Source of the DNA: Escherichia coli
Lineage (GTDB): Bacteria; Pseudomonadota; Gammaproteobacteria; Enterobacterales; Enterobacteriaceae
Assembly (NCBI RefSeq): GCF_050920415.1
Contig: NZ_CP169309.1
Direction: 5' to 3' (one strand)
DNA: 64,000 bases
Shown here: positions 4,701 to 42,165 of the stretch, piece after piece
How the letters are laid out: the number at the start of each line of letters is the position of its first letter
Position numbering within the stretch: position 1 is the first letter of the stretch
Notes under the pieces: generated by a model
The model's input: only the letters and a program-made list of their open reading frames with translations
Told to the model about the DNA's origin: nothing
The model's database searches: none
Made by a program: the position numbers and the translations under genes

Positions 4701-6200
4701 GCGCGGCTGACTGGAGAGCACGGCGAATGGGGTGTCGTCGCCCATCGAACCGACCGCTTCCTGACCGTTTTCACCCAGTACGCGAATTACGGAGTCCAGC
4801 TCTTCCGCGCTGTAGTTAAACTGTTTCTGGTAGCTGACAAGCGTGTCGTCGTCCAGTTCGCGGCTACCCACTTCTTCATCGGGCAGATCTTCAAACGGTA
4901 CCAGACGGCGGACGTTTTTCTCCATCCACTCTTTATATGGATGGCGGCTTTTCAGATCGTCATCGGTTTCTGCCGAGTGCAGAATACGCCCACTGCGGGT
5001 GTCGATAACCATCAGTTCGCCTGGCCCCACGCGGCCTTTTTCGACCACTTCGTCAGGCTGATAATCCCAGATACCGACTTCAGAGGCGCAGGTGATGAGC
5101 TTATCTTTGGTGATGACGTAGCGCGCCGGACGCAGACCGTTACGGTCGAGGTTACAGGCAGCAAAACGACCATCGGACATCACGATGCCCGCCGGGCCAT
5201 CCCACGGCTCCATATGCATGGAGTTAAAGTCAAAGAAGGCACGCAGTTCCGGGTCCATATCCGGGTTGTTCTGCCAGGCGGGTGGTACTAACAGACGCAT
5301 GGCGCGGATGATATCCATCCCGCCCGCCAGCAGCAGTTCCAGCATGTTATCCATGGAACTGGAGTCAGAGCCGGTTTCGTTGACGAACGGCGCGGCGTCG
5401 TGCAGGTCAGGGATCAGCGGTGTCTGGAATTTATAGGTACGCGCGCGCGCCCATTGGCGGTTACCGGTGATGGTGTTGATTTCACCGTTATGCGCCAGGT
5501 AGCGGAACGGCTGTGCCAGCGGCCAGCGCGGTACGGTGTTAGTGGAGAAGCGCTGGTGGAACAGGCAAATGGCCGATTCCAGACGCAGGTCCGCAAGATC
5601 CAGGTAGAAGCGCGGCAGATCCGCCGGCATACACAGACCTTTATAGATGTTCACCAGATTCGACAGGCTACAGACGTAGAAGTCTTTGTCAGCTTCGAGA
5701 CGCTTTTCAATGCGGCGGCGGGCGATAAACAGACGGCGCTCCATATCGCGCGGACGCCAACCTGCCGGGGCGTTCACAAAAATTTGCTCAATGCGTGGCA
5801 GAGAGGAGAGGGCGATTTCACCCAGCACGCCTTCGTTAGTGGGGACATCACGCCAGCCGACAATCGACAACGTTTCGCGTTGCAGCTCTTCTTCAACGAT
5901 GCGGCGTGCGGTCGCGGCGAGTTCAGGATCTTTATTCAGGAAAAGCATCCCGACGGCGTAGTTTTTCGCTAAACGCCAGCCTCGCTCCTGCGCAACAATG
6001 TGAAAAAAGCGATCCGGTTTTTGTAACAGCAAGCCGCAACCGTCACCGGTTTTACCATCGGCGAGAATCGCGCCACGGTGCTGCATGCGGGCCAGTGCGT
6101 GTATTGCAGTACGCACTACCTTGTGGCTAGGTTCGCCTTCTATGTGGGCGATCAGGCCGAAACCACAGTTATCCCTCTCAAGGGATTTATCGTACAACAT
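1740..6200 (-). CDS. gltB: Glutamate synthase large subunit
   Basis: ORF open to 6308 (1522 aa), but Met37 at 6200 gives the 1486-aa protein (MLYDKSLERDNCGFGL...) with the Ntn-amidotransferase Cys following a short propeptide. Confidence 0.95.
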   Translation of the reverse strand: MLYDKSLERDNCGFGLIAHIEGEPSHKVVRTAIHALARMQHRGAILADGKTGDGCGLLLQKPDRFFHIVAQERGWRLAKNYAVGMLFLNKDPELAATARRIVEEELQRETLSIVGWRDVPTNEGVLGEIALSSLPRIEQIFVNAPAGWRPRDMERRLFIARRRIEKRLEADKDFYVCSLSNLVNIYKGLCMPADLPRFYLDLADLRLESAICLFHQRFSTNTVPRWPLAQPFRYLAHNGEINTITGNRQWARARTYKFQTPLIPDLHDAAPFVNETGSDSSSMDNMLELLLAGGMDIIRAMRLLVPPAWQNNPDMDPELRAFFDFNSMHMEPWDGPAGIVMSDGRFAACNLDRNGLRPARYVITKDKLITCASEVGIWDYQPDEVVEKGRVGPGELMVIDTRSGRILHSAETDDDLKSRHPYKEWMEKNVRRLVPFEDLPDEEVGSRELDDDTLVSYQKQFNYSAEELDSVIRVLGENGQEAVGSMGDDTPFAVLSSQPRIIYDYFRQQFAQVTNPPIDPLREAHVMSLATSIGREMNVFCEAEGQAHRLSFKSPILLYSDFKQLTTMKEEHYRADTLDITFDVTKTTLESTVKELCDKAEKMVRSGTVLLVLSDRNIAKDRLPVPAPMAVGAIQTRLVDQSLRCDANIIVETASARDPHHFAVLLGFGATAIYPYLAYETLGRLVDTHAIAKDYRTVMLNYRNGINKGLYKIMSKMGISTIASYRCSKLFEAVGLHDDVVGLCFQGAVSRIGGASFEDFQQDLLNLSKRAWLARKPISQGGLLKYVHGGEYHAYNPDVVRTLQQAVQSGEYSDYQEYAKLVNERPATTLRDLLAITPGENAVNIADVEPASELFKRFDTAAMSIGALSPEAHEALAEAMNSIGGNSNSGEGGEDPARYGTNKVSRIKQVASGRFGVTPAYLVNADVIQIKVAQGAKPGEGGQLPGDKVTPYIAKLRYSVPGVTLISPPPHHDIYSIEDLAQLIFDLKQVNPKAMISVKLVSEPGVGTIATGVAKAYADLITIAGYDGGTGASPLSSVKYAGCPWELGLVETQQALVANGLRHKIRLQVDGGLKTGVDIIKAAILGAESFGFGTGPMVALGCKYLRICHLNNCATGVATQDDKLRKNHYHGLPFKVTNYFEFIARETRELMAQLGVTRLVDLIGRTDLLKELDGFTAKQQKLALSKLLETAEPHPGKALYCTENNPPFDNGLLNAQLLQQAKPFVDERQSKTFWFDIRNTDRSVGASLSGYIAQTHGDQGLAADPIKAYFNGTAGQSFGVWNAGGVELYLTGDANDYVGKGMAGGLIAIRPPVGSAFRSHEASIIGNTCLYGATGGRLYAAGRAGERFGVRNSGAITVVEGIGDNGCEYMTGGIVCILGKTGVNFGAGMTGGFAYVLDESGDFRKRVNPELVEVLSVDSLAIHEEHLRGLITEHVQHTGSQRGEEILANWSTFATKFALVKPKSSDVKALLGHRSRSAAELRVQAQ

Positions 6201-6874
6201 ATCGTGAACCTCCCCCAGGCTCTGCGGGAACCCCACTTCCGAACCGCTGCGCACGGGCACAGAAAGAGCGTGGCGACGGGGTTTGCGTTTCATACGCGCG
6301 CCTCGCATTCGCCCCCTTGTTGTCCTTTTCGCATCGATTAATACGGTGAAGAGGGGATCTCAATTACTGCATAAATATGATGAGCAGGCTGCTCATCCAG
6401 AAAGCTTCCAGCGGATTTCCAACTTATCGGGAAAGCTGATACAGGTCAAATGGCAAGCTTATTGGTACAGAAATGTGCTTTAGCGCAAAATTCTTTATTA
6501 ATTCATTGAAATTAAAAAGGATTTGTTAATTAAGTTGAAAAGAGGCGTCGTTAGGGAAGCAGTCATTTCCTGACTGTCATAAAGGCGTGTTAACCCTTAT
6601 CCTGCCTTGAACTGATGAGAAAACCAGCATTTTATACTGCCTTAATTGGTAATGACGTTTCATGCTACTGTTTTTGCCTAAAATCCATAAGGAGATAAAA
6701 AAATCTGACACAAGATAAGCAAAAGTGATTTATGTGATTATGCATGAAATTTCGGTAATTTTGATTGATTATGCAATTGATAAAAGCAGGCTGGGACGAT
6801 TGATCCAGGTCATCGCCGAATTGAGCTAAAAATGGCAGGCTTTGGCCTCTTTTCAAGGCGCGGTCTATCAGATT

Positions 6875-7804
6875 ATGCAGTTACAGAAATTAGTCAATAT
6901 GTTTGGTGGTGATCTCACCCGTCGTTATGGGCAAAAGGTGCATAAGCTGACGCTGCACGGCGGTTTTAGCTGCCCTAACCGTGACGGTACCATCGGGCGT
7001 GGTGGCTGCACATTCTGTAATGTTGCCTCGTTTGCCGATGAAGCGCAGCAGCATCATTCCATTGCCGAGCAACTGGCGCACCAGGCGAATTTAGTTAACC
7101 GCGCTAAACGCTATCTGGCCTACTTTCAGGCGTATACCAGCACCTTTGCCGAAGTTCAGGTGCTGCGTTCTATGTATCAGCAGGCGGTGAGCCAGGCCAA
7201 TATTGTCGGTTTGTGTGTTGGTACCCGCCCGGACTGCGTGCCGGATGCGGTGCTGGATCTGCTTTGCGAATATAAAGACCAGGGCTACGAAGTGTGGCTG
7301 GAGCTGGGGCTACAAACCGCCCACGACAAAACGCTGCATCGCATCAATCGCGGTCATGATTTTGCCTGCTATCAGCGCACGACGCAGCTGGCGCGTGAGC
7401 GCGGGCTGAAGGTGTGTTCTCACTTAATTGTCGGCCTGCCTGGAGAAGGGCAGGCTGAATGTTTGCAAACGCTGGAGCGAGTGGTTGAAACCGGCGTGGA
7501 CGGCATAAAGCTGCATCCGCTACATATAGTAAAAGGCAGCATTATGGCGAAAGCCTGGGAAGCGGGGCGTTTGAACGGTATTGAACTGGACGATTACACG
7601 CTCACTGCCGGAGAAATGATTCGCCATACGCCACCGGAAGTGATCTACCACCGCATTTCCGCCAGCGCCCGTCGCCCGACGCTGCTTGCTCCGCTGTGGT
7701 GCGAAAATCGATGGACGGGAATGGTCGAGCTGGATCGCTATCTGAATGAACATGGCGTACAGGGATCGGCGCTGGGACGTCCGTGGCTACCTCCAACGGA
7801 GTAG
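6875..7804 (+). CDS. yhcC: Radical SAM family protein YhcC
   Basis: ATG at 6875 gives 309 aa; the track ORF starts at an upstream TTG; CxxxCxxC-type Cys motif (CPNRDGTIGRGGCTFC); divergent from gltB. Confidence 0.9.
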   Translation: MQLQKLVNMFGGDLTRRYGQKVHKLTLHGGFSCPNRDGTIGRGGCTFCNVASFADEAQQHHSIAEQLAHQANLVNRAKRYLAYFQAYTSTFAEVQVLRSMYQQAVSQANIVGLCVGTRPDCVPDAVLDLLCEYKDQGYEVWLELGLQTAHDKTLHRINRGHDFACYQRTTQLARERGLKVCSHLIVGLPGEGQAECLQTLERVVETGVDGIKLHPLHIVKGSIMAKAWEAGRLNGIELDDYTLTAGEMIRHTPPEVIYHRISASARRPTLLAPLWCENRWTGMVELDRYLNEHGVQGSALGRPWLPPTE

Positions 7805-10236: not shown

Positions 10237-10348
10237 CCCCGGCTAGACCGGGGTGCGCGAATACTGCGCCAACACCAGGGAAATCTTGGCTGCGCCGTAA
10301 ATTATTATGATGAGTTACAAGGGCACAGCACTGTTTTTCAGGCCGCAC
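10228..10348 (-). ncRNA. arcZ: ArcZ (SraH/RyhA) Hfq-dependent sRNA, convergent with arcB and overlapping its last codons
   Basis: Minus strand reads GUGCGGCCUGAAAAACAGUGCUGUGCCC...GCGCACCCCGGUCUAGCCGGGGUCAUUUUUU, matching my recollection of ArcZ (~121 nt); ends in a GC hairpin plus U-run that overlaps the arcB stop. Confidence 0.75.
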
Positions 10349-38746: not shown

Positions 38747-39164
38747 TTTTGGTCCTGGTCTGAGGAATGGTTGTCAGGTATCTGTATCTCGTCCAGTTGC
38801 TTTACTCGTAGCTGGTTCTTTGAAACGATGGTGCCGGTACGCCTTAGTTATAAACTTTTCCCTACTGCTGACATAATTGGCACTTTATTGTGTCAACTCC
38901 AGTTCCGGTACGAATACGGATATGTTTACTTCTCGATAAACCATCCTGCTCCTGTCAGTATAACTACTGATGGCTACGTTCTGCGTAATGTTTAGAGACG
39001 CATTGATAATGTTATTTAATTACTGAGAACAATGGCCGCATCATTTAAAAAGAAAAAACTAACAGTGTTTCGGTCTGATATGGATCAGCGTTGAAAAACA
39101 TGTCTGATATAAAATTGAACATTGTTGATAATTGTTTATATTGGTTGTGAACTTGGATTTCTGG

Positions 39165-40037
39165 ATGACAGTATTCAACAAATTTGTTAGAAGTTTTAAA
39201 TCTCATTGGTTGTTGTATCTTTGTGTTATTGTTTTTGGTATTACGAACTTAGTCGCCTCTTCCGGAGCGCATATGGTTCAGCGATTGCTGTTCTTCGTTC
39301 TGACCATCCTGGTTGTTAAACGTATATCATCCCTTCCGCTTCGCCTGCTTGTTGCCGCATCATTTGTGTTACTGACAGCGGCAGACATGAGTATTAGCCT
39401 CTATTCATGGTGTACCTTTGGTACAACTTTCAATGATGGATTTGCGATTAGTGTGCTGCAGAGTGATCCGGATGAAGTTGTCAAAATGCTGGGGATGTAT
39501 ATCCCTTATCTATGTGCTTTTGCCTTTTTATCCCTTCTTTTTTTGGCAGTAATAATAAAATATGATGTTTCCTTGCCGACGAAAAAAGTGACAGGAATAT
39601 TATTGCTGATTGTCATTTCGGGCAGTTTATTTTCCGCTTGTCAATTTGCTTATAAAGATGCAAAAAATAAAAAAGCGTTCAGTCCATATATACTAGCGTC
39701 GCGATTTGCTACCTATACACCGTTTTTCAATCTCAATTATTTTGCTTTAGCAGCGAAAGAGCATCAAAGATTACTCTCAATTGCAAACACGGTGCCGAAT
39801 TTTCAATTATCAGTCAGGGATACAGGTATTGATACCTACGTGTTGATTGTGGGGGAGTCTGTACGTGTCGACAATATGTCTTTGTATGGATATACACGCT
39901 CTACGACACCGCAAGTCGAAGCACAAAGAAAACAGATCAAACTGTTTAATCAAGCAATAAGCGGTGCACCTTACACTGCGCTGTCGGTTCCCCTTTCTTT
40001 AACTGCTGATTCTGTTTTGAGTCATGACATTCATAAT
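39165..40037 (+). pseudogene. yhbX: yhbX, 5' fragment (putative phosphoethanolamine transferase / sulfatase-family inner membrane protein), interrupted by IS insertion
   Basis: AT-rich ORF with N-terminal TM helices; reading frame runs into the IS left end and stops at 40052; joining 40037 to 42166 after removing the IS and one repeat copy restores a continuous frame (...SHDIHN/YPDNIINMANQAGF...). Confidence 0.85.
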
Positions 40038-40138
40038 TGTCAGCGCCAATGATATAAGACAGTAATTCACCATTTGGATTGTCCGCTCCACCCAACATGT
40101 TGTTTCCTTAAGGTTCCTACACCACAAAGGGAACACTC

Positions 40139-42104
<1,966 letters not shown>

Positions 42105-42165
42105 TGACCAATAGCGGACATTAAAAATGGCGAAAAACGGCCAATAATCTTGGCGTTGACATAAT

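Follow-up and report, generated by a model that had tools for sequence, protein, structure and literature searches.

Regulatory architecture of the divergent gltBDF–yhcC spacer in an Escherichia coli strain distinct from K-12

The gltB–yhcC spacer and the sites that control gltB

The window analysed here is a 64,000-nucleotide (64-kb) stretch of E. coli DNA. Within it a spacer of 674 bp, which corresponds exactly to 6201-6874, separates gltB, whose ATG lies at 6198-6200 on the minus strand, from yhcC, which begins with the ATG at 6875 on the plus strand, according to the annotation of near-identical strains and of K-12. An initial annotation of this DNA had given the same flanking genes and the same limits, and both are borne out by the annotation and by a gapless alignment of the spacer with K-12 3354051-3354724 (674 columns, ~96% identity), from which K-12 coordinates can be converted exactly (window position = 3360925 − K-12 coordinate). 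Note that yhcC is named mnmL in newer RefSeq records (6875-7804, plus strand), and that arcB, ArcZ, elbB and mtgA lie downstream of it. (The ArcZ sRNA, at 10241-10348 on the minus strand, matches Rfam RF00081 with 120.8 bits and adjoins arcB as in K-12.)

The spacer is present as a single copy in 5416 of 5426 complete E. coli genomes, and only two genomes of the collection match it at 99% or above. The strain is distinct from K-12, from which it differs at 8-10% of the four-fold degenerate sites of yhcC and gltB, and the differences that fall in the spacer are concentrated in one patch of 66 bp. (Elsewhere in the window, a 2.1-kb insertion at ~40039-42159 that is absent from K-12 belongs to the IS21 family, with an IstA integrase-core protein and an IstB ATPase, and splits a sulfatase-family gene matching K-12 yhbX.)

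A scan of species-representative genomes yielded 13 related loci in which yhcC, recognised by tblastn matches to YhcC, is divergent from gltB. The length of the spacer is 668-697 bp in these 13 loci, which reach as far as Yersinia, and of the seven E. coli alleles that we aligned, six have exactly 674 bp; such conservation of length is compatible with the helical-phase dependence published for the gltB promoter. The blocks conserved in 12 Enterobacteriaceae are the ARG boxes, Lrp site 2, the -35 and -10 hexamers of gltB, the first ~70 nt of the gltB leader, the Shine-Dalgarno region and 6797-6818, and the parts that are poorly conserved between genera correspond roughly to columns 160-200, 250-300 and 320-395 of the cross-genus alignment (A3). 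The features that bear on transcription of gltB are listed here with positions relative to its start in brackets.

6416/6417, minus strand: gltB transcription start, placed through the K-12 alignment by the Crp-site numbers and primer ends given in PMC1784095
6421-6449, minus strand: gltB core promoter, with the -35 hexamer TTGACC at 6444-6449, the -10 hexamer TAAGTT at 6421-6426 and a 17-bp spacer
6471-6492, minus strand: repressing CRP-cAMP site (-76 to -55, centre -65.5), from the footprint and mutagenesis of PMC1784095 and a consensus match
6491-6529, minus strand: IHF-protected region (-75 to -113; PMC1784095)
6499-6511, minus strand: IHF core match TTTCAATGAATTA, with one mismatch to WATCAANNNNTTR
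6502-6567, minus strand: patch (-151 to -86) that is hypervariable in sequence but conserved in length, lying between the IHF core and Lrp site 3
6558-6672, minus strand: Lrp-binding region, with sites centred near 6568 (-152), 6632 (-215) and 6662 (-246) (PMC1784095)
6625-6639, minus strand: Lrp site 2, CAGTATAAAATGCTG (-215), a consensus match with 1-2 mismatches, conserved across genera
6734-6777, minus strand: ArgR-protected region (-361 to -318), from the footprint of PMC1784095
6739-6756 and 6760-6777, minus strand: two ARG boxes, consensus matches conserved in 12 genera

The published numbering of the gltB start contains an inconsistency of 1 nt, the primer ends giving 6417 and the Crp centre 6416. 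The position of the core promoter follows from this +1 and from the stated gap of 21 bp between the Crp site and the -35 hexamer, and the promoter so placed is invariant in 12 genera. A short and simple promoter that would need no upstream sites, the condition under which the initial annotation would have been refuted, is contradicted by the literature. (Note that a sigma-70 consensus scan of the spacer found no promoter and was uninformative, because the gltB and yhcC promoters are both weak and activator-dependent.)

The regulatory effects of these sites have been described for K-12. In particular, loss of either Lrp or IHF reduces transcription by more than 30-fold, CRP and ArgR each repress about two-fold, and expression drops when 5 bp are inserted between the promoter and the proximal Lrp site but not when 10 bp are inserted (PMC1784095). 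In the published model a bend induced by IHF lets the Lrp complex contact RNA polymerase (PMC1784095). Moreover, the region upstream of yhcC is among the ArgR sites found by ChIP-exo. Binding and regulatory effects were measured in the K-12 and O157 alleles, and we infer that the same proteins act on the allele of this strain.

The initial annotation had attributed control of gltBDF to Lrp, IHF, CRP and others, which matches this published K-12 architecture. Searches with simple consensus sequences find Lrp at -216, CRP at -65.5, ArgR at -331.5 and -352.5, and IHF at -86/-89, that is, at the published positions. Consensus matches were by count no more numerous than in shuffles, so that the sites are assigned on the basis of their agreement in position with the experiments. 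Among seven E. coli alleles the consensus positions of the IHF core are invariant and its NNNN positions are variable, and the TTTCAATGAATTA of this strain is closer to the consensus than the TTTCAGTCATTTA of K-12.

Three further observations concern this part of the spacer. First, at approximately -150 (6558-6576) E. coli has CAGTCAGGAA(A/T)TGACTG, which is Lrp site 3, where all ten other genera have a perfect CRP core, GTGA-N6-TCAC; the alignment suggests that CRP input may have been rewired in Escherichia. Second, a conserved block at 6715-6729 between the ArgR and distal Lrp sites (ATCACTTTTGCTTAT here, ATTACTTTTCCTTAT in other genera) may be the site of the MarA ChIP peak reported for the gltB-yhcC spacer in Salmonella. 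Third, one E. coli lineage (L007, AREA_497) lacks 9 bp at that edge of the ArgR-protected region which is nearer to the promoter (columns 135-143 of alignment A2).

Transcripts and promoters at the two ends of the spacer

The initial annotation had described the whole of 6201-6874 as a control region; that description holds for the AT-rich core, which is regulatory, but not for 6201-6417, which is transcribed as the gltB leader. The features of this end are the following.

6198-6200, minus strand: gltB start codon (RefSeq annotation), with the Shine-Dalgarno sequence GGAGG at 6209-6213
6201-6417, minus strand: gltB 5' leader of ~217 nt and 55.8% GC, from the placement of +1
6268, minus strand: RNA 3' end within the leader (~+150; K-12 3354657), from Term-seq (Adams et al. 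2021, supplementary files 1 and 3)
6366-6412, minus strand: possible enclosing helix H1 (GCUG at 6409-6412 with CAGU at 6366-6369), from minimum-free-energy and consensus folds
6379-6397, minus strand: leader hairpin P1, GAUGAGCAGCCUGCUCAUC (+21 to +39), flagged as terminator-like by a simple scan

The gltB frame is open for 108 nt upstream of the annotated ATG (6201-6308) and contains ATGs at 6293 and 6308. Such an open extension exists only in Escherichia and one Citrobacter; in most of the other genera the register is shifted by 1 nt and a TGA stands just before the gltB ATG. We considered the two upstream ATGs, which once gave a GltB of 1517 residues, both as the true start of gltB and as the start of a leader peptide, and rejected them on the grounds that they fall in frame 0, 1 or 2 across genera and meet an early stop in one. 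Because the upstream ATGs are not conserved in frame, the annotated ATG with its GGAGG is taken as the real gltB start. The string GCCTGGGGAGGTTCAC(T)GAT-ATG is kept as far as Yersinia.

Hairpin P1 lies within the part of the leader at 6343-6417. Compensatory changes were found at six of its eight pairs in 12 genera, and at seven of eight in 15 distinct sequences, and its covariation score was reached by none of 500 shuffles. Moreover, a covariance model of P1 gives one match per locus, in Enterobacterales and only upstream of gltB, and the flanks of the hairpin are invariant, including CUGGAAG/CUGGAUG and AUUUAUGCAGUAA. The stability of the fold of the whole leader is not unusual when compared to shuffles (z=+0.29 for 223 nt, z=-0.30 for 75 nt), and within the leader only P1 is supported, by covariation and not by energy. 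The pairs of H1 are either invariant or show one-sided changes (G:U to A:U), and an H1 that encloses P1 with invariant single-stranded flanks is suggestive only. A search of the spacer against Rfam 15 (E<=1) returned only a spurious match (E=0.36, with 18 bits against a gathering score of 128 bits), and we found no published description of the P1 hairpin in the literature.

The stem of P1 has 8-9 bp, four of them G-C pairs, and is followed by AUAUUUAU; it passes a simple terminator scan, with a U-tract that is interrupted. A role for P1 as a terminator was rejected since, under the conditions of one dataset, the Term-seq rows for the region include no 3' end near K-12 3354550. (The 3' end at 6268 was classed as 'internal' by Adams et al. 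2021, a class that derives from an older and longer gltB start.) Pairing of the leader with OmrA/B, for which we found by eye a match of 5 nt (CCUCU), was too weak to claim, and searches of the literature for CsrA CLIP, RIL-seq and premature termination turned up nothing specific to the gltB leader. We put forward tentatively, and with somewhat more doubt than confidence, the proposal that the first ~55 nt of the gltB mRNA may form a hitherto undescribed cis-acting RNA module that is conserved in the Enterobacterales and is made up of P1 with its 6-7 covarying pairs, a possible closing helix and the invariant single-stranded flanks. Such a module, if real, would add a post-transcriptional layer to the control of glutamate synthase, for instance by binding a protein or an sRNA or by determining mRNA stability.

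At the other end of the spacer lie the promoter of yhcC and a short RNA that is divergent from it.

6800-6813, plus strand: FNR site TTGATCCAGGTCAT, two mismatches from the consensus, inside a 22-bp block (6797-6818) that is invariant in 12 genera
6833-6841, plus strand: putative extended -10 element of yhcC, TGGCAGGCT, of which AGCCTGCCA is invariant
~6848, plus strand: yhcC transcription start with a 27-nt 5' UTR (region 6833-6874), corresponding to K-12 3354077 (Table S1 of PMC7967276)
6861 to 6784, minus strand: reported short RNA G0-10702 of ~78 nt, from its start to its Term-seq 3' end (PMC7967276)

The target sequence given for yhcC/gltB by FNR ChIP-chip is letter-for-letter the block at 6797-6818, and yhcC is known from ChIP-seq/RNA-seq to be activated by FNR, as is nrdD. 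The yhcC start was listed as unknown in earlier FNR studies; the one used here comes from a single re-analysis table of dRNA-seq and Cappable-seq data, where its base is T, and may be off by 1-2 bases. (Cappable-seq supplements contained no independent start-site rows for the region that match it.) The centre of the FNR site lies at -41.5 from this reported start, which is class II geometry, and the yhcC end of the spacer reads as an FNR-dependent class II promoter. According to a 2026 preprint, YhcC stands in under anaerobiosis for the oxidase activity that MnmC contributes to mnm5s2U tRNA modification, and an anaerobic role of this kind fits the control of yhcC by FNR.

The start and coordinates of G0-10702 are those of PMC7967276, and its 3' end is K-12 3354141 in the Term-seq data of Adams 2021; the original annotation extends to 6756. 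The RNA is antisense across the yhcC promoter and FNR site, overlaps the yhcC 5' UTR by ~14 nt, and has a 5' hairpin with some covariation. It was removed from EcoCyc in 2019 for lack of evidence.

These transcripts bear on the question of whether the spacer encodes a small protein or small RNA that might explain its length and conservation. G0-10702, with its mapped 5' end and Term-seq 3' end, and the covarying hairpin in the gltB leader both speak for such a product. Nevertheless, none of the ORFs in the spacer stays open or keeps its frame from genus to genus, Rfam gives no match, and the two RNAs are found at the two ends of the spacer rather than in its AT-rich core. Furthermore, G0-10702, besides having been dropped from EcoCyc, shares its DNA with the yhcC promoter and the FNR site, and the function of these at the level of DNA already explains the conservation there. 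We therefore consider it unlikely that the spacer owes its length and conservation to a product of its own.

The AT-rich core and the interpretation of the spacer

The segment at 6480-6800 has a GC content of 33.6%, a value so low that just 0.16% of 321-bp windows reach it; the GC content of the whole window is 51.9%. (The window's other very AT-rich stretch, at 38776-39658 with a minimum of 32% GC, comprises the 5' part of the yhbX homologue and adjacent intergenic DNA.) Through the gapless alignment, the Lrp, IHF, CRP and ArgR sites all map inside the AT-rich stretch, and footprints cover ~200 bp of it.

The patch at 6502-6567 differs from K-12 at 17 of 66 positions, which is the maximum for any 66-bp segment in the 61.5 kb that can be aligned (mean 1.86) and amounts to a divergence of 26%, when compared to 8-10% at four-fold degenerate sites. 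Its changes are exclusively substitutions, with neither insertion nor deletion, in the seven E. coli alleles aligned, and the N positions of the IHF core lie within it. The allele of this strain is found in 16 of 5416 genomes; 1339 genomes match the K-12 allele at 99% or more, and 628 match it at no better than 80-90%. Separately from the proposal made above for the leader, it is conceivable, though we lean against it, that the patch tunes IHF/Lrp looping by lineage.

The patch also bears on whether the AT-richness of the spacer is mostly passive, that is, a result of unconstrained intergenic drift toward AT, with function confined to a few short sites. Much of the spacer indeed shows poor conservation between genera, and 6502-6567 diverges faster than four-fold degenerate sites. 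However, outside the 66-bp patch the spacer is 5-10 times less divergent within E. coli than synonymous sites, its length is held within ~30 bp across genera and at 674 bp in all but one of the seven E. coli alleles, and the footprints account for ~200 bp of the segment. Passive drift is thus, in our judgement, quite improbable as the main cause.

The initial annotation had described the segment as AT-rich with phased A/T tracts. The AT-richness is clear from the figures above, but the phasing is not: the segment contains 20 AnTm tracts of at least 4 bp, as compared to 16.8 +/- 2.1 in dinucleotide shuffles (P=0.10), the periodicity of tract centres at 10-11.5 bp does not stand out from dinucleotide shuffles (P=0.43), and the Fourier power of AA/TT at the helical period gives P=0.06. 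Nor did the prediction of curvature set the segment apart, since 6480-6800 falls within the range of shuffles (P=0.27 for the mean and P=0.18 for the maximum). We therefore rejected intrinsically curved DNA with phased A-tracts at 6480-6800. (Note that curvature was computed with a home-made implementation of the Trifonov wedge model, which could be wrong.) The only stretch that is significantly curved by this measure is 6780-6874, at the yhcC promoter, where the peak at 6833 is the second highest in the 64 kb; predicted curvature at 6621-6760 is moderate. The idea that the AT-rich segment acts mainly through its intrinsic shape, as a curved element of phased A-tracts or as a target of H-NS-type silencing, has in its favour the extreme composition, the moderate curvature at 6621-6760 and the strong peak at 6833, but is very improbable given that tracts, periodicity and curvature of 6480-6800 fall within the range of shuffles, that the significant curvature sits outside that segment, that the conserved blocks are specific motifs rather than A-tracts, and that the bend of the published model is induced by IHF.

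We conclude that the spacer is, with high probability, a back-to-back regulatory region for gltBDF and yhcC that works as has been described for K-12. The AT-richness of its core would be due to a dense array of protein-binding sites, themselves AT-rich, which act at a distance on the weak gltB promoter. Two starts ~431 bp apart, that of gltB at 6416/6417 on the minus strand and that of yhcC at ~6848 on the plus strand, would be served by this DNA. On the gltB side, Lrp would occupy three sites, at -152, -215 and -246, and IHF bound near -89 would bend the DNA such that the Lrp-DNA complex meets RNA polymerase, resulting in 30-40-fold activation; CRP-cAMP (at -65.5) and ArgR (from -318 to -361) would each repress about two-fold. 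On the yhcC side, FNR at -41.5 would activate transcription anaerobically in the manner of a class II promoter.

The reading of the spacer as a control region is correct, ordinary and already published, the DNA upstream of gltBDF being a textbook case of distant activation by Lrp and IHF that is modulated by CRP and ArgR. What is added here is that the published K-12 site positions are now available in window coordinates and that the picture of the spacer is corrected, in that one third of it is transcribed leader and its yhcC end is probably an FNR class II promoter. In addition, there are two small leads, the covarying leader hairpin and the hypervariable patch, which are relevant to natural variation in, and post-transcriptional control of, ammonia assimilation.

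Comparison with known systems

The closest comparison is with the gltBDF region of K-12 and O157 (Wiese 1997; Paul 2001, 2007), with which this spacer shares both locus and length. The CRP site, core promoter and leader are all identical, the ARG boxes differ by a single base, located at the distal limit of the ArgR footprint, and Lrp site 2 is conserved. This strain differs in the 66 bp that separate Lrp site 3 from the IHF core, where its allele is a rare one, found in 16 of 5416 genomes.

Other promoters that are co-activated by Lrp and IHF have in common with gltBDF multiple upstream Lrp sites, an IHF bend before the promoter and a dependence on helical phase; Paul 2007 names ilvP as another promoter at which the role of IHF is architectural (PMC1784095). 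At gltBDF, unlike at those promoters, Lrp does not respond to leucine and exerts its effect from more than 150 bp upstream. Looping at gltBDF is so far a proposed model (PMC1784095).

The 5' UTR of enterobacterial mRNAs can contain stem-loops that stabilise or regulate them, as do ompA-type 5' hairpins and attenuator hairpins. P1 resembles these in that it is conserved, shows covariation, lies close to the 5' end of its mRNA and is followed by a U-rich stretch. It differs from them in that it starts at +21 rather than at the extreme 5' end, and in having neither a leader peptide nor an Rfam family nor a Term-seq 3' end.

With class II FNR promoters, the yhcC promoter shares TTGAT-N4-GTCAT at -41.5 and a weak -10 element with a TG extension, together with in vivo occupancy by FNR and anaerobic activation, both of which are known from the literature. 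Its half-site GTCAT is two positions off ATCAA.
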